Source: a virus
Virus record (IMG/VR): IMGVR_UViG_3300045988_042777
DNA length: 45,831 nucleotides
Strand: one strand, 5' to 3'
Shown: positions 2,405-45,831 of the stretch, piece after piece
Position numbering within the stretch: the first letter of the stretch is position 1
Layout of the letters: each line of letters opens with the position of its first letter
Made by a program: the position numbers and the translations under genes
Notes under the pieces: generated by a model
Database searches by the model: none
What the model saw: only the letters and a program-made list of their open reading frames with translations
What the model was told of the DNA's origin: nothing

Positions 2405-2991
2405 ATGAAAACCCCTGTTTTGAACATCGCCCCCGGTAAGACCGTGGACTACCACGGAGAGCCCTGCCTGGTGCTGGAGCACCGCAAGGACGGCACCCTC
2501 ATGCTGCACCTGGACCAGATGACCCACGCCTTTGGCAGCTCCAACAACTTTGCCGCCAGCTCTCTCCGGTCCCATCTCAATGGCCCCTATCTGCGGAGCC
2601 TCACGGACGGCAACCCCGATGAGATCATCACCCGCACTGTGGACCTCACCGCTCTCAATGGCTCCAAAGAGTATGGCACCTGTGAGTGCAAGGTGGCCCC
2701 GCTCACCCTGGATGAGCTCCGCAAGTACCATGACATTCTGCCCTTGCCTGAGAGCTTTGAGTGGTCCGTCACCCCCTGGAGCACCCCGGAGGTCAATGAG
2801 GATGACAAGTGGGTGATGGGCCTGTTCACCGGTGGCGGTGTCTACGACAACAGCTGCACGGCACCTACGGGTCCCGCCCCGCTTTCCTCATTCCCTCCTC
2901 CCTCACTGTGGAGGCTGAGGACGCCAACCCTCTGGAGCAGTACAGCACCCGTGAGCTGGCGGAGGAGCTTTTCCGCCGTATCACCAATTAA
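2405..2991 (+). pseudogene. Second DGR target paralog (C-type-lectin-like variable protein), disrupted by a 1-nt deletion inside VR2
   Basis: Frame A (2405 onward) gives FGSSNNFAASSLRSHLNG...WSVTPWS...VYDNSCT. The conserved end GTYGSRPAFLIPSSL...RRITN* is in frame B (stop at 2989-2991). The two frames join across one missing base at 2859/2860. Confidence 0.75.
2822..2883 (+). repeat. DGR variable repeat 2 (VR2), matching TR 39102-39164
   Basis: 62 nt against 63 nt of TR. There are 12 substitutions, all at TR adenines (aac to ttc, tac, gac, agc, ggc; aat to ggt), plus one deleted C. The 3' gggtcccgccccgct is identical. Confidence 0.8.
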
Positions 2992-3003
2992 GGGGTGAGC
3001 TCC

Positions 3004-3669
3004 ATGTCCACCCATGAAACAACCCGGAGGCCTGCTAAGCGCAAACGCCGCCCCAATTATCGCCCGGTCATCTTTTTGGCCCTGGTATGCGCTGCTATCT
3101 TCGCCGCCGGTTACTGCGTGGGGGTGAGGGCTGCTGACAAAGCGGCCCCCACTCTCCAGGAGCCGGTCCAGGAAAGCACCAGCACGCCGGAGCCTACCCA
3201 TGAGCCCAGTGAGGTCCCCTCCACGGAGGAGGTCCTCTGGCGGGATGACATAGTGACAGACGGCAACCTCCTGGACTATGACCTCCAGGTGACCATGCAG
3301 GCCTGTTGTGAGGAGTACAGCGTCCCCTACGCTCTGGCGCTGGCTGTGGCCGATGTGGAGAGCCGCTTTGACCCGGATGCCACCAGCAACACCAATGACT
3401 ATGGCCTCATGCAAATCAACAAGGTCAATCATGGGTGGCTCCTGGAGCAAGGCATTGACCCCATGACACCCGCCGGAAACATTGAGGCTGGTGTCCTGTT
3501 CCTCTCCGACTACCTCACCGCCTACGGGGACCCGGAAATGGCCATCATGGCCTACAACTGCGGCCCCTCCGGTGCTCAAAAGCTGTGGGCCTCCGGTACA
3601 TACCACACGGAGCACTCCACAAAGGTCATGGACCGCTTTGACTACTGGACAAGCATTTTGGAGGAGTAA
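3004..3669 (+). CDS. Membrane-anchored lytic transglycosylase (SLT domain)
   Basis: N-terminal TM segment (VIFLALVCAAIFAAGYCV). SLT motifs VADVESRFDP, YGLMQI and AYNCGP. RBS aaggggtga precedes ATG 3004. Confidence 0.8.
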   Translation: MSTHETTRRPAKRKRRPNYRPVIFLALVCAAIFAAGYCVGVRAADKAAPTLQEPVQESTSTPEPTHEPSEVPSTEEVLWRDDIVTDGNLLDYDLQVTMQACCEEYSVPYALALAVADVESRFDPDATSNTNDYGLMQINKVNHGWLLEQGIDPMTPAGNIEAGVLFLSDYLTAYGDPEMAIMAYNCGPSGAQKLWASGTYHTEHSTKVMDRFDYWTSILEE

Positions 3670-34104: not shown

Positions 34105-35066
34105 CCTATGAGCTGCTGATACAACACCAGGGGACCATCATGCTGCCGCCCGTGGTGGAAAATGTGAGCATTGAATGGGAGCGCCAAGGACAGCCCGGAA
34201 AGCTCACGGCGGAGGTGGTCAAAACCCCCGGCCTGAGTTTCCAGGAGGGGGACCCGTGCCGTTTTTCCGTGGACGGCACCCCCGTCTTTTATGGCTTTGT
34301 CTTTGAGAAATCCCGAAAAGGCAGCACGGATGATGTCATCCAGATCACTGTGTATGACCAGCTCTACTACCTCAAGAACAAGGACACCTATGTCTACACC
34401 AACAAAACCGCCGCCGATGTGATACGCATGATTGCGGAGGACTTCCAGCTCAATGTTGGTGACCTTGAGGACACCGGCTACACCATAGGGAGCCGGGTGG
34501 AGGACAACCAGACCCTCTTTGACATCATCCAGACCGCATTGGACGAAACCCTCAAAGCCACCTCCCAGATGTATGTGCTGTATGACGATGTGGGCAAGCT
34601 GACCCTCAAAAACATCGGCAGCATGAAACTGGGGGTGCTCATAGATGAGGACACGGCTGGGGACTTTGACTATAAAAGCTCCATTGCCTCCCAGACCTAT
34701 GACAAAATAAAGCTCTCCTATGAGAACAAGGAAACCGGAAAGCGGGAAATCTTTGTTGCACAGGACAGCTCCAACATCAACCAATGGGGCGTCCTGCAAT
34801 ACTATGAGAAGCTGGACAGCACAGAAAACGCCAAGGCCATGGCGGACGCCCTCCTGGACCTCTACAACACCAAAACCCGCACGCTCAAGCTGCGGGATGT
34901 GCTGGGGGACATCCGGGTCCGGGCCGGGACCCTGCTGGTAGTCATGCTGGGGCTGGGTGACATCAATGTTTCCAGCTATCTCATGGTGGAGCAGGCAAAG
35001 CACACTTTCAACAACGAACAGCACTTGATGGACCTAAACATGCGAGGTGGTACATTTGTCACTTGA
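34101..35066 (+). CDS. XkdQ/YqbQ-like baseplate hub protein
   Basis: 321 aa, in the order expected for the PBSX-type tail module. Confidence 0.65.
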   Translation: MTYELLIQHQGTIMLPPVVENVSIEWERQGQPGKLTAEVVKTPGLSFQEGDPCRFSVDGTPVFYGFVFEKSRKGSTDDVIQITVYDQLYYLKNKDTYVYTNKTAADVIRMIAEDFQLNVGDLEDTGYTIGSRVEDNQTLFDIIQTALDETLKATSQMYVLYDDVGKLTLKNIGSMKLGVLIDEDTAGDFDYKSSIASQTYDKIKLSYENKETGKREIFVAQDSSNINQWGVLQYYEKLDSTENAKAMADALLDLYNTKTRTLKLRDVLGDIRVRAGTLLVVMLGLGDINVSSYLMVEQAKHTFNNEQHLMDLNMRGGTFVT

Positions 35067-35460
35067 CATCAACCAACTGGTCAAGCTGGTCAAGCAGGCC
35101 GCTGTGGAGGCCGTCCAGGCTGGCGCTCCCATGAGTGGGGGCTATGGCTATGTGACATCCACCTCCCCGCTTGAAATCACCGTTGACCAAAAGAAAATCT
35201 TGTCTGAGGCCCAGCTCATCCTCACGGACGCCGTGAGGGACTACACCGTGGAGATGACCACCATGCCGGAGTTTCACGAAACGGAGGAAATCAGCGGCGG
35301 AGCTGGGGACGCTGCTTTTGCGTCCCACAAGCACCGCTACCAGGGCCGGAAAAAGTGGAAAGTCCACAACGCCCTCCAGATGGGGGAAAAGGTCATCCTC
35401 CTCCGGTGTGACGGCGGGCAGCAGTACATAGTCCTGGGACGATGGGAGGCGAGGAGCTAA
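35047..35460 (+). CDS. XkdR-like (DUF2577) baseplate spike-related protein
   Basis: Supported by order and size. The start is uncertain because it overlaps the previous gene by 20 nt. Confidence 0.55.
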   Translation: MVHLSLDINQLVKLVKQAAVEAVQAGAPMSGGYGYVTSTSPLEITVDQKKILSEAQLILTDAVRDYTVEMTTMPEFHETEEISGGAGDAAFASHKHRYQGRKKWKVHNALQMGEKVILLRCDGGQQYIVLGRWEARS

Positions 35461-35870
35461 TGGCCACACTACCGACCACGGGAGATGACCTGGACCTCAT
35501 CACCTTTGCGGTGGAAACCCAGCCCAGCTACACCCACAAGCTGGACATTGACCGCAACCAGGTGAGGGGCATGACGGATGAGCGGGATGCCGTCCTCCAG
35601 GCTGTTTACCTCATTCTGAATGTGGAGAGATATGCTTTCCCCATTTACTCCCGCAATTATGGCTCTGAGCTGTCCGATCTGATAGGCAAGCCCAAGGATT
35701 ATGCCATGAGCGAGATAAAGCGGCGCATCACGGAGGCGCTCCTCCAGGATGACCGCATCACCTCCCTGGACGGCTGGACCTTTGAAACGGGCAGAAATTG
35801 GGTCCTGGCCCGGTTTACCGTCCACACAATTTACGGCGATGTAAGCGCCCAAAAGGAGGTTGACATCTGA
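35460..35870 (+). CDS. XkdS-like (DUF2634) baseplate protein
   Basis: ATG 35460 overlaps the upstream TAA (TAATG), with a GGGAGGCGAGGAG RBS. Confidence 0.6.
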   Translation: MATLPTTGDDLDLITFAVETQPSYTHKLDIDRNQVRGMTDERDAVLQAVYLILNVERYAFPIYSRNYGSELSDLIGKPKDYAMSEIKRRITEALLQDDRITSLDGWTFETGRNWVLARFTVHTIYGDVSAQKEVDI

Positions 35871-37094
35871 ATGTTTGAAAGCAGGACCTATGAGGCGCTG
35901 CTCAGCAGCGCTCTTTCCAGGGTGACCTCTCCGGTGGATAAGCGGGAGGGCTCCATGGTGATGAATGGCGTGGCCCCGTCCATGGCAGAGCTGGCCCAGC
36001 TCTACATTGCGGCGGACTTTGTACTCCAGGCCACCTACATCCTCACAGCGCCCAGAGAGTATCTCATCAAGCGGGCCCATGACCGAAACATGGACCCCTA
36101 CCCGGCAAGCGCTGCCGTCTATCGTGCGGAGTTTAACATTGAGGTCCCTGTGGGCACCCGTTTTTCCTGTGAGGACCTCAACTTTGTTGTGACGGCCCGC
36201 ATGGACACGGAGGATGACACCGAAACCGGGCTCAGCCACCAGGTAACCTGTGAAACCCTGGGGGCCGTGGCCAACGGCTATGGCGGCACCCTCATCCCGG
36301 TGGAGTATGTGCAGGGCCTCACCAGAGCAGAACTGGTGGAGCTGCTCATCCCCGGCGATGATGAGGAGGAAACGGAGGCTTTCCGCCAAAGAGTGCTGGA
36401 CAGTTTCCAGTCCCAGGCCTTTGGTGGAAACCAGGCCGACTACCGGGAGAAAGTGCTGGCCATGCCCGGCGTGGGTGACCTCAAAATACACCCCGTATGG
36501 AACGGGGACATTTCCCCAGCCAGCCTCATTCCCGGGGAGGAGGTGGAAAGCTGGTACTCCAGCATCATCTCCACACTGAGCGGCCCTGTAGCCGCATGGC
36601 TCACGGCGGTCTATACGGCGGCCAAAGAGAAAAAGCTCACGGTGGGTGGCACAGTCAAGCTGGTCATCATGGCCTCTGATTACAAGGCCCCCACGCCCAC
36701 GCTGCTGGAGGAAATCCAGACGGCCATTGACCCAGAGCAGAACGCCGGGGAGGGCCTGGGCCTGGCTCCCATCGGTCATGTGGTGCATGTAACCGGTGTG
36801 ACGGCTGAAAAGGTGGACATTGAGCTCCACCTCACCTATGCCTCTGATTGGAGCTGGGAGGCCGTCAAGAGCTATGTGGAGGCTGTCATTGACGCCTATT
36901 TTGTGGAGCTGTCCCAAGACTGGGCCAGCTCTGATTTTTTGACCGTCCGTATTTCTCAGATTGAAAGCCGCATCCTGGCGGAGTGCTCCAGCATGATAAC
37001 CGACATTGGCGGCACAAAAATCAATGGGCAGGAGAGCAACCTGGCCCTGGGCCCGGATAGCATCCCCTCCAGAGGGGAGGTCACAGATGGATAG
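35871..37094 (+). CDS. Baseplate J-like protein (XkdT-like)
   Basis: 407 aa, in the expected position within the baseplate cluster. Confidence 0.75.
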   Translation: MFESRTYEALLSSALSRVTSPVDKREGSMVMNGVAPSMAELAQLYIAADFVLQATYILTAPREYLIKRAHDRNMDPYPASAAVYRAEFNIEVPVGTRFSCEDLNFVVTARMDTEDDTETGLSHQVTCETLGAVANGYGGTLIPVEYVQGLTRAELVELLIPGDDEEETEAFRQRVLDSFQSQAFGGNQADYREKVLAMPGVGDLKIHPVWNGDISPASLIPGEEVESWYSSIISTLSGPVAAWLTAVYTAAKEKKLTVGGTVKLVIMASDYKAPTPTLLEEIQTAIDPEQNAGEGLGLAPIGHVVHVTGVTAEKVDIELHLTYASDWSWEAVKSYVEAVIDAYFVELSQDWASSDFLTVRISQIESRILAECSSMITDIGGTKINGQESNLALGPDSIPSRGEVTDG

Positions 37095-37728
37095 ACGCCT
37101 TTTGAACTACCTGCCCCCGGTGCTCCGGGAGGTGCTTGAGTTTCAGACTATCAGCAGGGCCAATGAGCCGGAAATCTCCCTTGCCTGGGACGCCCTGACA
37201 CGGGTGTTGGCCAACCAATTCCTTGAGGACGCTGATGAGGACGGTGTGGCCATCTGGGAGAAAGAGCTGAGGCTCTATCCAAAAGATACGGACACCCTGG
37301 AGGCCCGCAAGGCCCGCATCAAGGCCAAGTGGAATTTGGAATTGCCCTACACCCTGCCCTGGCTGCGGAATTGGCTGGCGGGGCTATGTGGCCCGGATGG
37401 TCATGCTGTTTCTCTCAAGGACTACACCCTGGACATCCAGCTTGACTACACCATCCTGCCTGAGCCTGGCAGATTGGCTGCGGAAATTTTGGAGATGCTG
37501 CTGACCATCCGCCCGGAAAACCTTGTGATCTTGATGACCTCATTGGTGCAGTCCACGGGCGGTGTCCGGCTGGGAGCTCACACTGAGCGCTCTTTGCACA
37601 TGGACCTTTGGCCCCTGCTCACCAATGAGCTGGAGAGCTCCGGCGGCGTCATTGGAGCCGGGCCTCTGGAATATCGCACGACCATTGAAATTTATCCATA
37701 CGAACAGGAGGAAAGCGGAAATGCCTGA
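37087..37728 (+). CDS. XkdU/DUF2313-like baseplate protein
   Basis: MDRRLLNYLPPVLREVLEF start is typical of the family. ATG 37087 overlaps the upstream stop. Confidence 0.65.
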   Translation: MDRRLLNYLPPVLREVLEFQTISRANEPEISLAWDALTRVLANQFLEDADEDGVAIWEKELRLYPKDTDTLEARKARIKAKWNLELPYTLPWLRNWLAGLCGPDGHAVSLKDYTLDIQLDYTILPEPGRLAAEILEMLLTIRPENLVILMTSLVQSTGGVRLGAHTERSLHMDLWPLLTNELESSGGVIGAGPLEYRTTIEIYPYEQEESGNA

Positions 37729-38458
37729 CCAGGAAAAAAAGTATGGCACCAGAATAACCACGGCTGGAGCTGCTCTCATCACTGACTGCATTTTGGCTGG
37801 GACAAAGCTGAAAATCACCCAGGCCGCTGCCGGTGACGGCGGCGGCAGCTACTATGTGCCCAGTACGGAGCAGACGGCACTTGTGCGGGAATTGTGGCGG
37901 GGCCCTATCGTGTCCGCCGAACAAAACCCCACTGTGCCCAACATGATGGATGTGAAAATCATCATTGATGACAGTGTTGGCAACTTCATCTGCCGTGAAA
38001 TGGGCCTTTTTGATGAAAGTGGCACTCTCATTGCCATCTGCAACACCCCGGACACGGAAAAGGTGGCCATCTCCACGGGAGTGGACGGGCGGCTCACCAT
38101 GCTCATGCACATTGTTGTGGTGGACAGCTCTGTGCTGGAGTTTACCATTTCCCCGTCCCTTGACACCGTTACACCGGAGGACCTTGAGATGGCCATTGAC
38201 GACCACAACAAGGACCCCGAGAGCCACGCCGACATCCGGCAGGCCGTAAAGGACACCGTGAACACCCACAATTCTGACGAAACCTCCCACCCGGACATCC
38301 GGGTGGCCCTGTCTGGACTGGACAGCCGCCTCTCCGTGCTGGAGCTGAAATACGGCACCGATGTCACCGGCAACAGCTTTGAGGTCACCTTTGGAACACT
38401 CACGGGTGTGGTGGTTACCGGCGTCTGGAATGAAACTTATGCGAGGATTGAGTTTTAA
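37721..38458 (+). CDS. Tail-collar fibre protein (DUF3751-like N-terminus)
   Basis: MPDQEKKYGTRITTAGAALITDCILAGTKLKITQAAAGDGGG resembles tail-collar fibre N-termini. CAGGAGGAA RBS. Confidence 0.7.
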   Translation: MPDQEKKYGTRITTAGAALITDCILAGTKLKITQAAAGDGGGSYYVPSTEQTALVRELWRGPIVSAEQNPTVPNMMDVKIIIDDSVGNFICREMGLFDESGTLIAICNTPDTEKVAISTGVDGRLTMLMHIVVVDSSVLEFTISPSLDTVTPEDLEMAIDDHNKDPESHADIRQAVKDTVNTHNSDETSHPDIRVALSGLDSRLSVLELKYGTDVTGNSFEVTFGTLTGVVVTGVWNETYARIEF

Positions 38459-39006
38459 TGCCAAGTTATGACATCATCCCACTTGCCTCTGATCTGCTGG
38501 ATTACACCATCCAGCGGGTCAAGCAGAAAGACCCGGAATACAGGCAGGTCAAAGCGTATGTAATGGAAAATGGCCAGATGGTAGAAAAGACCCTCTATGA
38601 GAGGCTGAAAGACAACGGAAAGCCCCATTTTCCAAAGAGCCAGGCTTTCCACCTCTGTGCAGAGCTCCAGTCCTGCGCCCTCCGTATTCTGAGGGGCTGC
38701 GTGGCCGCCAATGGGCGGTATTTTGAAACTGAGTATGAGGAGCGGTTGAAAGACCTTGACGGCGTGCTCATTGAGTGTGAAACCATGGGCCAGCTCATCA
38801 ATCTCAGTTTCAAGCGCAAGTATATCACCGGCGATCAATGCCATTACTGGGCGGAACTTGTGCGCCCAGTCCGTCAAAAGGCTTTCAACTGGAGAAAATC
38901 AGACGGCAACCGTGCCGCCACTCTCCGGGAGGCCAAAACGGCCCAGGAGCTTGCCAAGATGGGGCAAATGGCTCTGCAAATGGCAGAGGCTCTGCGGCCT
39001 CAATAA
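38458..39006 (+). CDS. avd: DGR accessory variability determinant (Avd-like helical bundle protein)
   Basis: Lies immediately 5' of TR. Helical, with FPKSQAFHLCAELQSCALRILRGCVAANG and a basic C-terminus (NWRKSDGNR). Larger than a typical Avd. Confidence 0.6.
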   Translation: MPSYDIIPLASDLLDYTIQRVKQKDPEYRQVKAYVMENGQMVEKTLYERLKDNGKPHFPKSQAFHLCAELQSCALRILRGCVAANGRYFETEYEERLKDLDGVLIECETMGQLINLSFKRKYITGDQCHYWAELVRPVRQKAFNWRKSDGNRAATLREAKTAQELAKMGQMALQMAEALRPQ

Positions 39007-39064
39007 CGGATGCACCGGCCCTAAAGGCCGTGTATTTGGGTGTGACCTGTTTATTTTATGCTAC

Positions 39065-39164
39065 CTCCCCGAACACGAACAACACCAACAACGCCATCTA
39101 CCTGAACACCAATGGCAATGTCAACAACAACAACTGCACCAACACCAACGGGTCCCGCCCCGCT
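39065..39164 (+). repeat. DGR template repeat (TR)
   Basis: Non-coding 100-nt segment with about 35 adenines. In the VR frame it reads as 12 AAC and 2 AAT codons. It is collinear with VR1 and, over part of its length, with VR2. Confidence 0.9.
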
Positions 39165-39394
39165 CTGATGGTAAGGCCCGACCGAGTAGGCCCAAAGCCA
39201 AAAGCAGCGCCATCCATCACATCAAAGGAGGTCACATCCAGCCTTGACACCAAGGCAAATACATTGCGCTGATGCCCCCAGCCGCACAAGAGGAGGCTGG
39301 GAGCTGCTGGTCCTGTTCCCTGCGGCACCTACACGGCGCACAAGGACAGGGAGGCCCGCCGGGATGAACAGGGGGCCGCCCGTATGTTAGGGGT
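39065..39394 (+). ncRNA. Putative DGR template RNA (TR plus spacer up to the RT start)
   Basis: No credible ORF in this stretch; the tracked ORFs here translate the Asn-rich TR. The placement mirrors the TR-spacer-RT arrangement of characterised DGRs. Confidence 0.5.
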
Positions 39395-40432
39395 ATGAAA
39401 CCCGTGCTTAAATTTTCCGAGATTTGCACCTTTGCGGTGCTTTACAAAGCCTACCTTGCGGCCAGACGGGGCAAACGCTCCAGAGCCGCTACCGCACATT
39501 ATGAGGTCCACCTGCTGGCCAATATCGTCAACCTTGTCTATATCCTGCAAACCAAGATTTACCGCCCGGGGCTGTTCCGGGTGTTCTATGTCTATGAGCC
39601 CAAAAAGAGGCTTGTGCAGGCTCCGGCTTTCGTTGACAAAGTGGTCCAGCACGCTTTGGTGGATAACCTCATATATGAACGCATCACAAGAAGTTTCATT
39701 CTTGACAACTACGCATCCCAGAGAGGAAAAGGCCTGCACTTTGGGCTGGACAGGCTCAAGGGCTTTTTCACAGAATACTGGAACAAATACCGCACAGCGG
39801 AGGGCTGGGTCCTCAAGGCAGATGTGCGGCATTTCTTTGCGTCCATCGACCATGACAGGCTCAAGGAAAAGCTCAAAAAGCTGGACCTTGAGCCCGTTGT
39901 CTATGATCTGCTGTGTACCTACATAGACAGCACGGACGGGCTGCCGCTGGGCTATCAAACCAGGCAGCTTTTTGCCCTGCTGTTTCTGGATGAATTTGAC
40001 CACTTTGTCAAAGAGCGGCTCCGCATCCGCTGGTATGGCCGTTATATGGATGACTTTTTCCTCATCCACCCTGACAAAGAATACCTGCAATTTTGCCTCA
40101 AAGAAATCCGGGCTTTCATGGCCAGTTTGGGGCTGGAGCTCAATGAGAAAACCCAGATTTTCCCGCTGAGAAATGGGATTGACTTTCTGGGCTTTCATAC
40201 CTACTTGACGGAGCAGGGCAAGGTCATCCGCAAGTTACGGCACAGCAGCATCAAGCGTATGCGCTCTAAGCTCCGCCGGTGGGAAAAAGACTACCCGGCG
40301 GGCCTTGTGAGCCGGGAGGTCATCCTGCAAAGCTGGCAGGCCTGGGACGCCCACGCTGCTCACGGCAACACCTGGTCCTTGCGCCAACAGGTGCGGGACC
40401 GTGTTCAAAACATTCTAAAGGAGGAAATCTAA
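39395..40432 (+). CDS. DGR reverse transcriptase
   Basis: RT motifs LKADVRHFFASIDH, LPLGYQTRQLFALLFLDEFDHF and YGRYMDDFFLI (YMDD). Confidence 0.9.
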   Translation: MKPVLKFSEICTFAVLYKAYLAARRGKRSRAATAHYEVHLLANIVNLVYILQTKIYRPGLFRVFYVYEPKKRLVQAPAFVDKVVQHALVDNLIYERITRSFILDNYASQRGKGLHFGLDRLKGFFTEYWNKYRTAEGWVLKADVRHFFASIDHDRLKEKLKKLDLEPVVYDLLCTYIDSTDGLPLGYQTRQLFALLFLDEFDHFVKERLRIRWYGRYMDDFFLIHPDKEYLQFCLKEIRAFMASLGLELNEKTQIFPLRNGIDFLGFHTYLTEQGKVIRKLRHSSIKRMRSKLRRWEKDYPAGLVSREVILQSWQAWDAHAAHGNTWSLRQQVRDRVQNILKEEI

Positions 40433-42243
40433 TGGCCACAACCACCCTTGGCAGTAAGGCCACAGGCTCCATCATCAAGCTCAAAGAAAACGGCAAGCTG
40501 GTGGAGTTTTATGTTGGCGTGCATAACTACGAAAGCAGCCTCAACGGAACCGGGAGGACCCTGGTTTTCCGCAAGGACTGCTATGACCAGCGGCAATGGC
40601 ACACTTCCAATGTGAACGCCTACGCATCCAGTGCTATTGACAGCTGGCTCAACAGTACCTACAAAAACATGCTGGACGCTGACATCCGGGCGCTGATTGG
40701 CTCCACGAAAATCCGCTACACTCCCGGCAATGGTAACACCACAATGGGCACCCTGGACCGGGCGGTGTTCCTGCTGTCCGCCTATGAGCTGGGCGAGAGC
40801 GAAAGCTGGTTTAACAAGGAGGGCACAACGCTGCCCAATGCAACCAATTATCAGATTGCCAAGCTGAACGGCTCCGCCGTGGTCCAGTGGACCCGCTCCC
40901 CGGGCACGAACAGCACCAACTACGCCATCTGCCTGGTCACCAATGGCCATGTCGACTACAGCTACTGCACCTTCACCTACGGGTCCCGCCCCGCTTTCAC
41001 TCTCCCCTCCAACCTCTATGTGAGCGATGACGGCACAGTGTTTCAGAACACCGCCCCCTCTACGCCCGCCAGCATTTCTGTCCCCAGCAGCATCAACGGC
41101 GGCTCCTCCATCACGGTGAGCTGGGCGGCCTCCACGGACGCTGAGGGAAACCTTGAGGGCTATATTGTCGAGCGCTCCACCAATGGCGGCTCCTCCTGGT
41201 CCCAGATTTACCAGGGCAGCGCTACCAGCACCAGCAACACCGTGGCCTTTGGCACCGCAAGCGTGACCTATCGGGTCAAGGCCTATGACAGCGCCGGGCT
41301 TGAGAGCGGCTGGAAAACCAGCAACACGGTGACCGTGACCAACAACCGGGCCCCCAGCGCCCCCGGCGGCCTGACTGTCCCCGCCATTGTGAGAGGCGGC
41401 AGCACTCTGGCCATTTCCTGGACGGCGGCCTCTGACAGTGACGGTAACCTCAGCGGCTATGAGCTGGAGCGCCAGGTGGATGGTGGCGGCTGGTCCCAGA
41501 TTTACAAAGGCAGCGCTCTGGCCTACACCGACACCATCACCTCCGGCTGGAATACGGTGGCCTATCGTGTGCGGGCCTATGACACCTATAACTCCACCAG
41601 CGGCTATGTGACCAGCGAAACCCGGACAGTGGATAACAACGCCCTGCCGGTCATCACCAGCTCCACGGCCTCCGGGAGCGATCTGGGCACCAAGGAAACC
41701 GGCTTTGATCTGACCTATACCGTCAATGATGCCGACAAGGACACGGTGACGGTCAAAGAGTATCTGGATGATGTACTCAAGCGGACCTACACCGCCACCC
41801 TGGGGCAGAGCAACACCGTCCAGTGTGTCACCGCTGCCAACTGGCAAAAGGTCCTCAACGGGGCCCACACCATCAAGGTGGTGGCCAATGACGGCAAGGC
41901 AGACAGCGCCCCCTACACCGTGACATTTACCAAGGCCGTCTATGAGGCCTCCATCACCCTGGCGGCCCCCATGGATGCGGATGACCTCATCACGGTCATG
42001 GTGCTCAATGTGCTGGGCTCTATTCCGGCGGACGCTGACCTGGAGGTCCTTGTGACCAACAACGCCAAGGACACGGAGCCTGTCTGGGAGGACGCCACCC
42101 AGGATGTCAAGAACGGCAACAACCATGTTTTCACCAACCAGACCGCAACCAACGGCTTTGCCTTTAACTTTAAGGTCAATGTGAGCCGGGGCTCCAGCAG
42201 CACCGGCGGCTACATTACCAGCATTGGAGGTGCTTTTCAATAA
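40432..42243 (+). CDS. DGR target: tail fibre / receptor-binding protein (N-terminal variable lectin-like domain, two FN3 repeats, C-terminal beta domains)
   Basis: ATG 40432 overlaps the RT stop (TAATG), with AAGGAGGAA 7 nt upstream. Contains WTRSPG...YGSRPAFTLPS. The tracked start at 40279 lies inside the RT gene. Confidence 0.85.
   Translation: MATTTLGSKATGSIIKLKENGKLVEFYVGVHNYESSLNGTGRTLVFRKDCYDQRQWHTSNVNAYASSAIDSWLNSTYKNMLDADIRALIGSTKIRYTPGNGNTTMGTLDRAVFLLSAYELGESESWFNKEGTTLPNATNYQIAKLNGSAVVQWTRSPGTNSTNYAICLVTNGHVDYSYCTFTYGSRPAFTLPSNLYVSDDGTVFQNTAPSTPASISVPSSINGGSSITVSWAASTDAEGNLEGYIVERSTNGGSSWSQIYQGSATSTSNTVAFGTASVTYRVKAYDSAGLESGWKTSNTVTVTNNRAPSAPGGLTVPAIVRGGSTLAISWTAASDSDGNLSGYELERQVDGGGWSQIYKGSALAYTDTITSGWNTVAYRVRAYDTYNSTSGYVTSETRTVDNNALPVITSSTASGSDLGTKETGFDLTYTVNDADKDTVTVKEYLDDVLKRTYTATLGQSNTVQCVTAANWQKVLNGAHTIKVVANDGKADSAPYTVTFTKAVYEASITLAAPMDADDLITVMVLNVLGSIPADADLEVLVTNNAKDTEPVWEDATQDVKNGNNHVFTNQTATNGFAFNFKVNVSRGSSSTGGYITSIGGAFQ
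40896..40995 (+). repeat. DGR variable repeat 1 (VR1)
   Basis: 100 nt with 15 mismatches to TR, all at TR adenines. Encodes residues 155-188 of 603. Confidence 0.9.
41056..41640 (+). other. Two tandem fibronectin type III-like repeats within the target protein
   Basis: The two units are ...ITVSWAASTDAEGNLEGYIVERS...YRVKAYDSAG... and ...LAISWTAASDSDGNLSGYELERQ...YRVRAYDTYN... Confidence 0.75.
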
Positions 42244-42755
42244 TGGCAGTTACATGGAAAAAGGACAGTGTGAAAGCTATGCGGGAACAGCGGGAGGCAG
42301 CGGCCAAAGCTGAGGCCATGAACGCCCAGGCCCAGATTGCAGTTATGGCGTTTTGCGCTACCGCCACGACTATCACGGACGCCCAGGCTCTCCAGATGCC
42401 GGACCTTTTCCCCGTGTGGGAGGATGTCCTGGCCGCTGGTGAAAAGCTGGCGGAGGGCACCATCCTCAAGGATGGCACCGTCCTCTATCGGGTGGTGCAG
42501 CCTGGCGGCGTCACTCCCCAGGAGCACCAGCCGCCCCACGGTGAGGGGATGCTGGCGGTTTACCGCCCCATTGACCAGAGCCATGCCGGAACCCTTGAGG
42601 ACCCCATCCCCTGGGTGTACGGGATGGATTGTCACGCTGGTGTTTATTTCAGCTACCAGGGCCACATCTACAAGGTGGCTGAGGGCGGTGACATGGTGCC
42701 ATGCACCTGGGCCCCTGGCACTCCTGGCCTGTGGCAGTGGGAACTCATTAAGTAA
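42243..42755 (+). CDS. Hypothetical tail-associated protein with a CBM5/12-like aromatic C-terminal motif
   Basis: ATG overlaps the upstream TAA. The C-terminus GVYFSYQGHIYKVAEGG...WAPGTPGLWQWELI resembles small carbohydrate-binding modules. Confidence 0.5.
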   Translation: MAVTWKKDSVKAMREQREAAAKAEAMNAQAQIAVMAFCATATTITDAQALQMPDLFPVWEDVLAAGEKLAEGTILKDGTVLYRVVQPGGVTPQEHQPPHGEGMLAVYRPIDQSHAGTLEDPIPWVYGMDCHAGVYFSYQGHIYKVAEGGDMVPCTWAPGTPGLWQWELIK

Positions 42756-42769
42756 AGGAAGCGGACCCA

Positions 42770-43102
42770 ATGGTTATTGAGCTTTCTGTGGGGAGCCTGC
42801 TCACCCTGCTGGGCATCCCCACAGCGATCACGGCCTTTTGTTCCTGGATGCTCCAGCGCCGGATTGCCAAACGAGAGGCCATCCAGGACGCAAGGGAGGC
42901 CGCAAGAGAACAAAACGAGGTCCTGCTAATCCAGAACACCCGGGCAGCACTGGCGCTGGCAGAGGCCACCGCCGTGGCTGTCCAGCGCATCCCCGATGCC
43001 CATTGTAATGGGGATATGCACGCCGCTCTGGAATATGCCCGCAAGGTCAAGCACAAACAGAAAGACTTTTTGACGGAGCAGGGCGTCAAAGCCATTTACT
43101 GA
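42770..43102 (+). CDS. Membrane protein (one N-terminal TM segment plus a coiled coil)
   Basis: TM segment LSVGSLLTLLGIPTAITAFCSWML; lies in the lysis-region context. Confidence 0.5.
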   Translation: MVIELSVGSLLTLLGIPTAITAFCSWMLQRRIAKREAIQDAREAAREQNEVLLIQNTRAALALAEATAVAVQRIPDAHCNGDMHAALEYARKVKHKQKDFLTEQGVKAIY

Positions 43103-43217
43103 GGCCCGCCATGAGGCTGGTTTTCCTGGCCCTGCTGGGCATGGTAGAACTCCTCTGGCGGAACCGGAAAGGAGGGCGTGAAAAATAGATACCTCAAAAA
43201 AGCTGCTCTGGGCCCAT

Positions 43218-43463
43218 GTGGTCATTTCTGTCCTGTTGTGTGTGGCCACCATCGTCACCAACTACCTGGGCTATGATGTGACCGCCCTGGCGGGCCTTGC
43301 GGGGGCCTCTCTTTTGACCAACGGGGCCTGGGGCGGTTTCTATTTCTGGAAAGCCAAAAATGAAAACCGGGCCAAATACGCCCAACGGTTTCTCAAGCAA
43401 TTTGCGGACAAGTATGGGGCGGATGTCGCTGTCCGTGTGGCGGAAATCGTGCTGAAAGATTAA
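43218..43463 (+). CDS. Two-TM holin-like membrane protein; start uncertain
   Basis: TM segments VISVLLCVATIVTNYLGY and LAGLAGASLLTNGAWGGFYFW, then a basic tail. GTG 43218 has no RBS. Confidence 0.45.
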   Translation: MVISVLLCVATIVTNYLGYDVTALAGLAGASLLTNGAWGGFYFWKAKNENRAKYAQRFLKQFADKYGADVAVRVAEIVLKD

Positions 43464-43480
43464 GTAAAGGAGAGATTGCA

Positions 43481-44506
43481 TTGAGTAAGATGACCGCAAA
43501 GGAACTGGTTGACAAGGCGGTTGACATCGCCAAGAACTACAAGACCCTGTATGTGATGGGCTGCTTTGGGGCCCCGCTGACCGGGGGAAATGTGAGCCGC
43601 TATTGCACCAACCACTCCTACAATAAGGCCCCGGCCCGCACGGCCATGATTAAGGCCGCCGCCAACCAGAGCCCTCCTGTTTATGGCTTTGATTGCGTCA
43701 ATCTCATCAAGGGCATCCTCTGGGGCTGGAACGGGAACGCCTCCAAAACCTATGGCGGGGCGTCCTACGCCGTCAATGGTGTGCCCGACATCGGTGCTGA
43801 TACCATGATTACCAAATGCACCGGAGTGAGCACCACCGGCTGGGCCAACATGGCTGTTGGTGAGGCCGTCTGGATGTCCGGCCATATCGGCATCTATATT
43901 GGGGACGGCCTGGCTGTGGAATGTACCCCCAAGTGGGAGAATAAAGTGCAGATCACCGCTGTTGGGAACATCGGCAGCAAGGCAGGCTACAACACCCGCA
44001 CCTGGACCAAGCACGGAAAGCTCCCCTATGTGGACTACACGGGGGCCTCTACGGGCGGAGGCACTGGGGGAACATCCCCGAGCACCCCCGGCTCCGGTGG
44101 CTCTCTGGAGGCCTCTGTGGGCGATACAGTGACCTTTACCGGCACCAAGCACTATGTCAGCTCCAACGCCACCAATGGGGCCGCCTGTAAGCCCGGCAAG
44201 GCTAAAGTCACCGCCGTGGCAAAGAACGCCAAGCACCCCTACCACCTCATCAAAGTGGCGGGCGGCGGCTCCACCGTCTACGGCTGGGTGGACGCCTCTG
44301 ACATCCAGGTGGATGGTGCCATCACCGTGGGTGCAAAGGTAAAGGTCAACAAAGGAGCCAAGACCTACACCGGCGGGAGCCTGGCCTCTTTTGTCTATAA
44401 CAACACCTACACCGTCATGCAGATGGACGGTGACCGGGCGGTCATTGGCCAGAATGGCGTGGTAACTGCCGCCATCAACAAAAAGGACCTCACCCTTGTG
44501 GGGTAA
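43481..44506 (+). CDS. Endolysin: NlpC/P60-type peptidase with two C-terminal SH3-like wall-binding repeats
   Basis: Catalytic Cys context YGFDCVNLIKG and His context SGHIGIYIGDG. Gly/Ser linker, then repeated GD/GA-TV...V... modules. AAAGGAGAG RBS precedes TTG 43481. Confidence 0.8.
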   Translation: MSKMTAKELVDKAVDIAKNYKTLYVMGCFGAPLTGGNVSRYCTNHSYNKAPARTAMIKAAANQSPPVYGFDCVNLIKGILWGWNGNASKTYGGASYAVNGVPDIGADTMITKCTGVSTTGWANMAVGEAVWMSGHIGIYIGDGLAVECTPKWENKVQITAVGNIGSKAGYNTRTWTKHGKLPYVDYTGASTGGGTGGTSPSTPGSGGSLEASVGDTVTFTGTKHYVSSNATNGAACKPGKAKVTAVAKNAKHPYHLIKVAGGGSTVYGWVDASDIQVDGAITVGAKVKVNKGAKTYTGGSLASFVYNNTYTVMQMDGDRAVIGQNGVVTAAINKKDLTLVG

Positions 44507-44529
44507 CATAGAAAAGGGAGGATAAACTC

Positions 44530-44844
44530 ATGGAAAGCATTTTTGACTGGTCCGTTATTCTCAGCATCGTGGGCATCCTGGTGGTGGTCACCAACATCAT
44601 CACCCAGGTGCTCAAAAAGCTCACCTGGGACAAGCTGCCCAACAACATCCTGGCGGTGCTCATCGCCATGGCCCTGACCCTGGCGGCATTTTTCGCCTAC
44701 TGTGAAATCAAGGGCGTGGCTATCGTCTGGTACATGATTGTGGCCGCTGTGGTCCTGGGCTTTTTCGTGGCCTATGCGGCCATGTTTGGCTTTGACAAGC
44801 TGAAAGAGGCCATTGCCCAGCTTGACCAGAAAAAGATTGAATAA
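44530..44844 (+). CDS. Holin (three TM segments)
   Basis: 104 aa with three hydrophobic segments and a charged C-terminus, adjacent to the endolysin. GGGAGGA RBS. Confidence 0.7.
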   Translation: MESIFDWSVILSIVGILVVVTNIITQVLKKLTWDKLPNNILAVLIAMALTLAAFFAYCEIKGVAIVWYMIVAAVVLGFFVAYAAMFGFDKLKEAIAQLDQKKIE

Positions 44845-44848
44845 GTGC

Positions 44849-44888
44849 AAAAAAGCCGGAGAGGGTCAAACCTCTCCGGCTTTTTTTT
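44849..44888. terminator. Bidirectional rho-independent terminator
   Basis: A6, then stem gccggagagg / cctctccggc (perfect 10 bp, loop gtcaaa), then T8. It lies between convergent genes. Confidence 0.85.
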
Positions 44889-44895
44889 ATTCTCT

Positions 44896-45291
44896 TTACA
44901 GGGTATAGTCCCCGGCGGCTGCCCCGATCTGAGCGGACAACGCCCGAAAAGCATCTCCGGTTTTGGGCTCAAGATACCAAAAAGCCAGCATCCGCTCCCC
45001 ATCCTGGGCGGTGTAATGGAACACGGCAAACCACTTGACGGCCTTGCCATGCGCTGTGGTGGCCGCCGTGCCGTGATACCGGGCCATGAAATTGCGCTCT
45101 GGCATCATTTCAAGGCCGGTCACCTTTTCCAGCGGGAGCGTGGCAGCTGGGCCATTTACCTGCTGGAACACCAGCCCGGCCTCAGTCTGCTCCATAAAAC
45201 ACGGGCCATCCTGGGAAAAGCCTCTCAGGCCCTCATAGTGCATCATGCGGACCCCTGCGGGGAGGTCCTTTTTCTTTTTGCCAAACAACAT
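44896..45291 (-). CDS. Hypothetical protein; the only minus-strand gene (moron / lysogeny-expressed candidate)
   Basis: AAGGAGG RBS lies 9 nt before the ATG whose first base is at 45291 on the complement (MLFGKKKKDLPAG...). It has its own promoter and terminator. Confidence 0.65.
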   Translation of the reverse strand: MLFGKKKKDLPAGVRMMHYEGLRGFSQDGPCFMEQTEAGLVFQQVNGPAATLPLEKVTGLEMMPERNFMARYHGTAATTAHGKAVKWFAVFHYTAQDGERMLAFWYLEPKTGDAFRALSAQIGAAAGDYTL

Positions 45292-45316
45292 GTGGCATCG
45301 CCTCCTTTGTATCTCC

Positions 45317-45345
45317 ATTGTAAGGTTAGGCCCTCATTGTGTCAA
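45317..45345 (-). promoter_or_regulatory. Strong sigma-A-type promoter for the minus-strand gene
   Basis: On the complement: TTGACA (45345-45340), 17-nt spacer, TACAAT (45322-45317). Confidence 0.65.
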
Positions 45346-45366
45346 GTATTGGAGCCTAAAATGACA

Positions 45367-45394
45367 ATGACATATCAAAAGAGCACAATATAAT
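45367..45394 (+). promoter_or_regulatory. Promoter for the second XRE gene, divergent from the minus-strand promoter
   Basis: ATGACA (45367-45372), 16-nt spacer, TATAAT (45389-45394). Confidence 0.5.
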
Positions 45395-45410
45395 TGACAT
45401 TATGGAGGTG

Positions 45411-45707
45411 ATGCTGGTGATAGCAGAACGGATAAAAGAACTCCGGCAGGCACGGGGCTGGACGCAAGCAGACCTTGCCCGGCGGTTGAACATAACCAGG
45501 AACGGCGTCAACTCCTGGGAGCAAGGGCTCTCTACGCCGTCCCCATCCTCTCTGGTTGACCTGGCCAAGCTGTTCTCTGTTTCAACGGACTATCTGCTGG
45601 GCATGGAGCCTTTACATACCGTGAATGTATCTGGCCTGGATGAGCGGGATGTGGCCATCCTTGCGGAACTGGCGGACCGGCTACGGAAAAGCAAGACAGA
45701 GGACTAA
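45411..45707 (+). CDS. XRE-family helix-turn-helix transcriptional regulator
   Basis: IKELRQARGWTQADLARRLNITRNGVNSWEQG HTH. GGAGGTG at 45404-45410; the start may be ATG 45411 or GTG 45417. Confidence 0.8.
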   Translation: MLVIAERIKELRQARGWTQADLARRLNITRNGVNSWEQGLSTPSPSSLVDLAKLFSVSTDYLLGMEPLHTVNVSGLDERDVAILAELADRLRKSKTED

Positions 45708-45712
45708 AAGAC

Positions 45713-45742
45713 GCCTGGAGCAATCCGGGCATCTTTTTTTTT
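45713..45742 (+). terminator. Rho-independent terminator
   Basis: Stem gcctgga / tccgggc (one G-U pair), loop gcaa, then atc followed by T9, which abuts the TTGACG -35 box. Confidence 0.6.
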
Positions 45743-45831
45743 CTTGACGATATACAACTAAAGTAGTATAATGAGGGCAACGGAGGTGAGCATGATGGAC
45801 ACCAAGAAAAACAGCAGACTGCAAAACACCC
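45733..45831. repeat. Terminal overlap copy 2, identical to 1-99
   Basis: Exact 99-nt repeat of the window start. It includes the promoter and the first codons of the XRE gene at 60-311. Confidence 0.9.

Follow-up and report, generated by a model that had tools for sequence, protein, structure and literature searches.

The experimentally characterised prototype of the diversity-generating retroelements (DGRs) is that of Bordetella phage BPP-1, ordered mtd-avd-TR-brt (TR, template repeat; brt, the gene for the reverse transcriptase, RT). The described systems closest to the element considered here are those of nd4 and nd12, in which the target 1 proteins were given the name 'tentaclins' (Baykov et al. 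2023; PMC10743442), and those of the Faecalibacterium prophages Lelie, CP11, Roos, Pioen, FP_Toutatis and FP_Brigit, where DGR activity was documented through read variation and the comparison of cognate genomes (PMC11792537). IMG/VR virus record IMGVR_UViG_3300045988_042777 (the window; the whole stretch of 45,831 nt that was analysed) carries an element of this type, which was already published in 2023–2024 (PMC10743442, PMC11792537) and leaves the current understanding of DGRs unchanged. It is very probably a functional-type DGR with an avd-TR-spacer-RT core and two targets, situated in the late operon of a contractile-tailed temperate phage of the Oscillospiraceae. Only three features go beyond the published descriptions: the proposed assignment of the spacer to the RNA motif RT-2, an apparently tolerated serine-to-arginine replacement in the RT (S190R), and a frameshift in the remote second variable repeat (VR2).

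Compared to BPP-1, the window has the same avd-TR-spacer-RT core, an RT homologous to the Bordetella enzyme (bRT), adenine-specific differences between the TR and the variable repeat (VR), a GC-rich VR/TR 3' end and a structured RNA in the spacer between TR and RT. It differs in that the target lies downstream of the RT rather than upstream, the VR occurs in the N-terminal domain of a long protein rather than at the protein C-terminus, the fold is DUF6273 rather than Mtd's C-type lectin (C-lec) fold, there is no hairpin after VR1, there are two targets, and the spacer matches RT-2, whereas that of BPP-1 is RT-10 (PMC5737381). The phages nd4 and nd12 are, like that of the window, small myovirus-like gut phages in which VR1 is near the 5' end of target 1, an N-terminal DUF6273/C-lec domain is followed by Ig/FN3 domains (569–579 amino acids [aa], compared to 603 aa in the window), target 2 is small, consists of DUF6273 alone and has a shorter VR2 at the 3' end, a beta-hairpin is predicted for VR1, the TR is rich in AAC and AAT codons, and a Tyr-to-Cys change is present (PMC10743442). 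They are without nucleotide-level similarity to the window, and their RTs are 51% (nd12) and 43% (nd4) identical to its RT; further, target 2 is 195 aa here compared to 234–294 aa there and is located here beside an SLT transglycosylase gene in the early/replication region, and the frameshifted VR2 and S190R are features of the window. The Faecalibacterium prophages likewise have DUF6273 targets with the VR at the C-terminal end of the domain, with one large and one small target in Lelie and CP11 (PMC11792537). Identity to the window RT is 55–57% for the RTs of Lelie, FP_Toutatis and FP_Brigit, while the genome is a different one and the probable host of the window phage is Dysosmobacter or another member of the Oscillospiraceae; the RTs of Vibrio VP585, ANMV-1 and Bordetella phages are also homologous. 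As cited in the Faecalibacterium prophage study, Cornuault 2018 is reportedly a source on these prophages.

The core of the element and its first target comprise the following features.

38458..39006 (+ strand), divergent avd-like accessory gene, 182 aa (PHROG 3206 'Avd protein of DGR', 5e-22)
39065..39164 (+ strand), TR, 100 nt with 35 adenines (direct comparison; repeat finder; identical in six near-identical genomes)
39150..39164 (+ strand), A-free, GC-rich 3' end of the TR, GGGTCCCGCCCCGCT, resembling an initiation of mutagenic homing (IMH) element and shared with VR1 and VR2
39165..39394 (+ strand), non-coding spacer RNA from TR to RT, 230 nt (covariation; Rfam RT-2 match)
39395..40432 (+ strand), gene for a DGR-type RT, 345 aa (RVT_1 2.5e-16; PHROG 1423 4e-115; PDB 8ub7 8e-33)
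40432..42243 (+ strand), target 1, tentaclin-type protein, 603 aa (Pfam DUF6273; PHROG 10993; AlphaFold2 [AF2]; Foldseek)
40896..40995 (+ strand), VR1, target residues 156-188, in the C-terminal beta-hairpin region of the DUF6273 domain

Based on direct comparison and a repeat finder, the TR and VR1 constitute a single ungapped direct repeat of 100 nt (85% identity; BLAST E-value within the window, 5e-28), the homology of which ends sharply at both boundaries. All 15 differences occur at TR adenines (7 A>G, 7 A>T, 1 A>C) and the 65 non-A positions of the TR are unchanged in VR1 (hypergeometric p = 1.3e-8 for 15 mismatches all landing on the 35 A positions), such that the repeats differ in the manner by which a DGR is recognised. 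In the frame of the target, the TR contains 12 AAC and 2 AAT codons, and each of its 35 adenines is at codon position 1 or 2, with none at position 3. An initial annotation, made from the letters of the sequence, had described the two repeats as collinear 100-mers with these counts of differences, unchanged positions and codons, and had named mismatches at non-A positions as one result that would refute it; the description was reproduced in full and there are no such mismatches. Codon 167 of target 1 (40929-40931) is TGC (Cys) where the TR has TAC (Tyr), a change also seen in many relatives. The recurrence of this Tyr-to-Cys change was noted by Baykov et al., who suggested that it gives rise to a stabilising disulfide (PMC10743442). 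In L004 and L061, both relatives, the alignment of VR1 to the TR includes 3-nt gaps.

The repeats end in a shared element, as GGGTCCCGCCCCGCT forms the last 15 nt of the TR, of VR1 (40981-40995) and of VR2 (2869-2883), and it is nearly invariant across about 100 relatives. Directly 3' of this element the flanks split, with CTGATGG after the TR and TTC... after both VRs. A shared GC-rich 3' end followed by differing flanks is what would be expected of an IMH-type element, and GGGTCCCGCCCCGCT with its divergent flanks appears to be the sole recognisable IMH-like feature at VR1.

The avd-like gene ends 58 nt upstream of the TR and occupies the position directly upstream of the TR in relatives too, an arrangement that would agree with an Avd role, while a search of PDB with the Avd sequence returned chance matches only. 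The RT has YMDD at residues 217-220, and the top match in a search of PDB was bRT, with group II intron, retron, Drt, Abi and Cas-linked RTs at 1e-8 or worse and the next class at 2e-8, which places it, as judged by homology, within the DGR clade. These results agree with the initial annotation, which had listed an Avd-like gene (divergent, as it turns out), a non-coding spacer between TR and RT (in addition structured), an RT with YMDD and a target that starts on the RT stop codon (TAATG at 40430-40434), and had proposed the affinity of the RT as a further check. The probability that the TR and VR1 are instead the product of ordinary duplication or gene conversion, accompanied by an unrelated RT (of a retron, group II intron or defence system), is negligible. 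The top NCBIfam models for the RT were group II and Drt3a, far below cut-offs, in a search that returned no DGR RT match, but mismatches are strictly A-specific here and in >100 relatives, the TR is non-coding and invariant while the VRs are variable, bRT outscores every other RT class by 25 orders of magnitude, and there is no Rfam match to a group II intron or retron in the window. A-specificity in an ungapped alignment and the match to bRT effectively refute this explanation.

Diversification was judged across independent assemblies from different samples, standing in for read mapping, by the reasoning that had been applied to the cognate genomes of the Faecalibacterium prophages. The window and five near-identical genomes (L001, L002, L091, L161 and L162) have an identical TR and, amongst them, six different VR1 sequences. 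In L161, 25 of 7038 nt differ from the window; VR1 accounts for 22 of these differences, each of them at a TR-A position (binomial p 5e-38), and in L002 there are 12 differences in VR1, 12/12 at TR-A positions, and 0 in the TR. More broadly, among the related loci with sufficient flank (about 120), almost every one possesses a TR/VR pair in which 80–100% of the mismatches are at A. An invariant TR together with a VR1 that varies at TR-A positions only indicates that the lineage is actively diversifying, as far as comparison of genomes can reveal it. In one relative (L036, 3678-3766), the copy in the TR position has G where sister TRs have A (GGAC, GGCGATG, AACGGC, CCGGC), which could reflect either a TR in decay or one that has been written over.

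A second target is remote from the core.

2405..2998 (+ strand), target 2, small DUF6273-only gene, 195 aa in relatives and frameshifted here (relatives' gene calls)
2821..2883 (+ strand), VR2, corresponding to TR positions 37-100 (gapped BLAST)

VR2 was found by gapped BLAST of the TR with 7-nt words. A strict scan for more VRs, in which nearly all non-A positions had to match over 30–100-nt segments, returned the TR and VR1 alone, VR2 being missed because of its 1-nt deletion and shorter 5' extent. Compared to the TR, VR2 has 12 substitutions, 12/12 at TR adenines, and lacks one C (after 2858); this deletion shifts the frame of target 2, which if intact would stop at 2988-2990. With the deleted base restored, the product is 195 aa, ends in ...YGSRPAFLIPSSLTVEAED... 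and aligns along its whole length to the DUF6273 profile A3 (hhalign, 97.8%, E 1e-12), while the Pfam DUF6273 score of target 2 is 21 bits, slightly under the 23.5-bit cut-off. VR2 is hypervariable at TR-A positions among genomes 98.1–99.7% identical to the window, and the pattern in these relatives therefore gives the element two targets. The distance from VR2 to the TR is 9.4 kb on the circular genome and about 36 kb in the prophage; targets that are not adjacent to the rest of the element within a prophage have been documented (Wu et al. 2018; PMC5758913). A look-up of the exact product of the SLT open reading frame (ORF), which has a GTG start, returned no record. Thus, of the complete cassette that the initial annotation had placed at 38458-42243, the components hold, while the second target lies outside the span. 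Among relatives, L173 has two VR2-like copies in tandem (2918-2980 and 2990-3048, 9 nt apart) and the VR2 of L189 has an extra TAC codon.

Several observations weigh against a functional element in this genome. The matches of Avd to NCBIfam DivGenRetAVD (9e-7) and Pfam bAvd (8e-5) are both under curated cut-offs, and no inverted repeat (hairpin or cruciform) was found within 120 nt downstream of VR1 (fold z-score -0.8), though a hairpin or cruciform after the VR, as in BPP-1, is not universal among DGRs. The signature motif of DGR RTs is [I/L/V]GxxxSQ, with which the IGSLTSQ of bRT at the signature position (8ub7 alignment) is consistent. From a motif comparison spanning 160 loci, the window RT departs from this signature with GLPLGYQTRQ (R190, AGG, 39962-39964), compared to GLPLGYQTSQ in 116/116 clade relatives. 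The frameshifting deletion of VR2 is present in 0/27 relatives (26 ungapped; L189 with an additional 3 nt), and diversification, as observed for the lineage, is for this particular genome extrapolated from its relatives.

R190 is the lone amino-acid difference between the window RT and its three closest relatives from IMG/VR and the genome collections (L001, L002 and L091). It is not an error, because three independent contigs from four sequencing samples encode the exact same RT. Read sets in which this R190 RT occurs unchanged are SRR24907905, SRR36245129 and SRR36245131. In the R190 contigs, VR1 differs from that of the window at 19–22 positions, all TR-A, while the flanks are 99.0–99.6% identical, and therefore VR1 diversification continued after S190R arose. 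S190R thus seems compatible with mutagenic retrohoming. More remote DGR clades with N at the site of the signature Ser (INQ) also show A-specific TR/VR pairs.

The same observations bear on the possibility that the DGR in this genome is a recently disabled relic, in which S190R and the VR2 frameshift are early decay and the TR/VR pattern is a record of past activity. R190 is confined to this sub-lineage, the VR2 deletion is unique among the 27 relatives, and a look-up of the exact frameshifted target 2 product returned no record. Set against this are the divergent VR1 sequences of the R190 contigs and the A-specific pairs retained by the INQ clades. As for the missing base of VR2, it may be a mistake of the assembly, or it may have been lost in reality, for instance through a slip during retrohoming, which would be overwritten in the following round. 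A relic is accordingly considered improbable, and a functional-type DGR with two targets is the preferred interpretation.

Target 1 is composed of a DUF6273 domain (residues ~1-200; Pfam match at residues 41-193, 1e-26), two FN3 domains (~205-400) and further C-terminal beta-rich domains, and a search of PDB returned FN3/titin matches. An AF2 model of the full-length protein, built with 61 close homologues, was confident only for the two FN3 domains (predicted local distance difference test [pLDDT] around 90), with pLDDT of 30–60 for the N-terminal domain and VR and below 50 for the C-terminal 100 residues. Using a diverse domain alignment from a profile search, it was possible to re-predict residues 1-205 with a pLDDT of 97 (predicted template modelling score, 0.92), and in this model VR1 (156-188) forms the last strands of the domain, including the 164-168/174-178 hairpin. 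The best Foldseek match in PDB was the DUF6273 N-terminal domain of a Thomasclavelia IgA peptidase (9qa6, E 6e-7; template modelling score, 0.71), followed by the Legionella Lcl C-terminal domain and then many C-type lectin domains with weak scores; among viral models there were 29 significant matches, many of them named DUF6273 gut-phage proteins, with DUF1566 following weakly. The C-type-lectin fold that the initial annotation had suggested looking for in the N-terminal 200 residues, with the VR at the surface, therefore appears as a DUF6273 fold with weak C-type-lectin neighbours and VR1 as its C-terminal hairpin. Overall, the model moderately supports linking the DUF6273 domain of target 1 to the C-type-lectin fold, in line with the published assignment.

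Across the 61 homologues, the maxima of protein-level entropy coincide exactly with the codons in which the TR has adenines, and the VR is located, as is typical of DGR targets, at the C-terminal end of a ligand-binding domain of C-type-lectin/Ig-fold type. With a predicted N-terminal C-lec/DUF6273 domain that bears the VR on a beta-hairpin, and at least one Ig-like domain after it, target 1 has the layout of a tentaclin. The tentaclins described by Baykov in 2023 reportedly also have an Ig-like domain at the C-terminus that serves for anchoring and has a consensus of seven residues; in target 1, the PHROG 10993 match extends to residue 603.

The gene position and domain type point to target 1 as a tail receptor-binding protein. 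A possible, if doubtful, alternative is that the DGR is real and that target 1 is a Hoc-like protein, decorating the capsid or acting as a general adhesin, the ligands of which would be those of mucus, the host animal or elsewhere in the environment. PHROG 10993, 'Hoc-like head decoration', is the best match for residues 301-603 (3e-171), the tandem Ig/FN3 architecture is typical of Hoc-like proteins, and the authors of the tentaclin study allow for the binding of immune or intestinal cells (PMC10743442). However, the gene ends the baseplate/tail-fibre module, preceded by the tail-collar fibre gene and followed by those for lysis, T4 Hoc is without an N-terminal lectin-like domain (PMC10743442), and the PHROG label is a carried-over annotation, not a function established by test. 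Where the initial annotation had spoken of adenine-specific retrohoming acting on a receptor-binding protein of a contractile-tailed phage, the retrohoming pattern and the type of phage stand, and the receptor-binding role of this Hoc-like-labelled protein is to be read as probable on account of position and domain.

Among 240 retrieved homologues, 77 (P0121-P0135 and about 60 others) have two DUF6273 matches above 50 bits, and the examples inspected have tandem domains in roughly 430–540 aa, instead of DUF6273 and Ig. Searches for target homologues returned >8000 matches, of which a single 90%-identity cluster (P0001) holds 1611 distinct member sequences, a size consistent with massive VR-driven diversity in gut metagenomes.

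The spacer between TR and RT has a conserved structure. In an alignment of 26 relatives, the first ~150 nt are strongly conserved and four helices are supported by covariation.

39166-71/39214-19, 39241-44/39253-56, 39266-71/39334-39 and 39274-82/39296-304 (+ strand), spacer helices

Within this four-helix core, 94% of cells are paired compared to 34–48% in slid controls, and compensatory changes occur in 18 of 30 pairs, with the observed values reached by 0/500 shuffles. A permissive E-value search returned a match to the full model of the Rfam family RF03077 (RT-2 RNA) at 39172-39361 (28.9 bits, E 4e-5), and the helices of the motif are the same as those found independently by covariation. 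The copy in the window scores below the 40-bit gathering score of RF03077, whereas the spacer of one relative (L056) exceeds it at 43.4 bits; at gathering threshold, Rfam returned no match across the whole window, including none to a group II intron or retron. The motifs RT-1 to RT-19 were found beside RT genes by Weinberg et al. 2017, who tied RT-10 to the BPP-1 spacer, did not link RT-2 to DGRs specifically and ventured that DGRs other than that of BPP-1 might use further RT motifs (PMC5737381). The DGR clade of the window appears to be such a case, suggesting that RT-2 is a DGR spacer RNA.

The genomic setting of the element is that of a complete phage with the following additional genes near the core or at the start of the window.

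369-1409, gene for an rve-type integrase/transposase (PHROG 4646)
37721..38458 (+ strand), tail-collar fibre gene, 245 aa (Pfam Phage_tail_fib 8e-37; PHROG tail collar fibre 5e-43)
42243..42755 (+ strand), 170-aa ORF after target 1 (PHROG 27545, unknown function, 2e-48; present in L161 and L162)

Positions 1-99 of the window recur without a difference as its last 99 nt (45733-45831), which makes the window a circularly closed assembly of 45,732 bp. Structural genes include those for the portal, major head protein, tube, tape measure and tail-collar fibre, and the presence of a tail sheath gene (PHROG 279, 2e-120) together with baseplate J and gp48-like proteins identifies a contractile-tailed phage. 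In another contig (L183, 1-660), a bacterial SMC gene borders directly on a phage of 99.7% identity. The two meet close to window position ~1561, which sets the attachment site immediately downstream of the gene for the integrase; the integrase gene and this copy beside the SMC gene indicate that the phage is temperate. A Dysosmobacter metagenome-assembled genome holds the L091 copy, 98.7% identical over the compared region (window 34671-45831), and this copy suggests Dysosmobacter or another member of the Oscillospiraceae as the host. Bacterial genomes contain 251 relatives of the RT, mostly in Oscillospiraceae and other Clostridia. A nucleotide search of INPHARED (GenBank records) had MT835552.1 as its sole match (78–80% identity), which is without annotation.

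Within a run of overlapping late genes, the cassette is preceded by the tail-collar fibre gene, also called in L161 (a near-identical contig), and followed by the lysis genes. In addition to the overlap of RT and target 1, TAATG overlaps join the fibre gene stop to the avd start (38456-38460) and target 1 to the next ORF (42241-42245). That 170-aa ORF, translationally coupled to the tentaclin gene and located between it and the lysis genes, had no match in a Pfam search and may encode an assembly factor or partner protein. The sole strong terminator of the cassette region is at 44849-44886, and a promoter scan returned sites no commoner than the chance expectation.

While the anatomy of the element, its homology, its adenine-specific pattern and the continuing diversification of the lineage are observed, the priming mechanism, virion location and ligand are those we infer for it, the mechanism by analogy with BPP-1. 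The 3' end of avd, the TR and the spacer would be transcribed as a single RNA, in which the structured spacer would dock the RT-Avd complex and prime cDNA synthesis. The RT would then copy the TR faithfully except opposite adenines, where any base could be inserted, and the cDNA would replace the homologous VR, with the 3' limit set by the shared GGGTCCCGCCCCGCT and the direction of retrohoming set by the flanks that diverge right after it. Rewriting of VR1 could recode up to 20 residues of the beta-hairpin in a DUF6273 domain carried on an Ig/FN3 stalk, and rewriting of VR2 could recode the same hairpin in a small protein made of DUF6273 alone. Such rewriting probably serves to alter which ligands, whether host receptors or others on gut surfaces, are recognised by binding proteins displayed on the virion.

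A joint interpretation of the three new features can be offered tentatively, at somewhat less than even confidence: RT-2 may be the priming or scaffold spacer RNA of a large DGR clade of Oscillospiraceae phages, Arg may be tolerated in GxxxSQ, and retrohoming may write indels into VRs. If so, the RT-2 motif would gain a function, as RT-10 has for BPP-1, and a supposedly diagnostic Ser would prove replaceable by Arg with adenine mutagenesis continuing in nature. The indels of VRs (the 1-nt deletion here and 3-nt insertions in relatives) would then be a reversible on/off switch of target 2, reversed by the next round of retrohoming. The near-identical genomes with different VRs represent a natural experiment on selection of the hairpin and on co-variation of VR1 and VR2. 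The element adds a well-documented natural example to the two-target, tentaclin-type phage DGRs, which are very abundant in the human gut, and its RT-2-like spacer, tolerated S190R and frameshifted VR2 could guide RT-RNA biochemistry outside of the Bordetella model.

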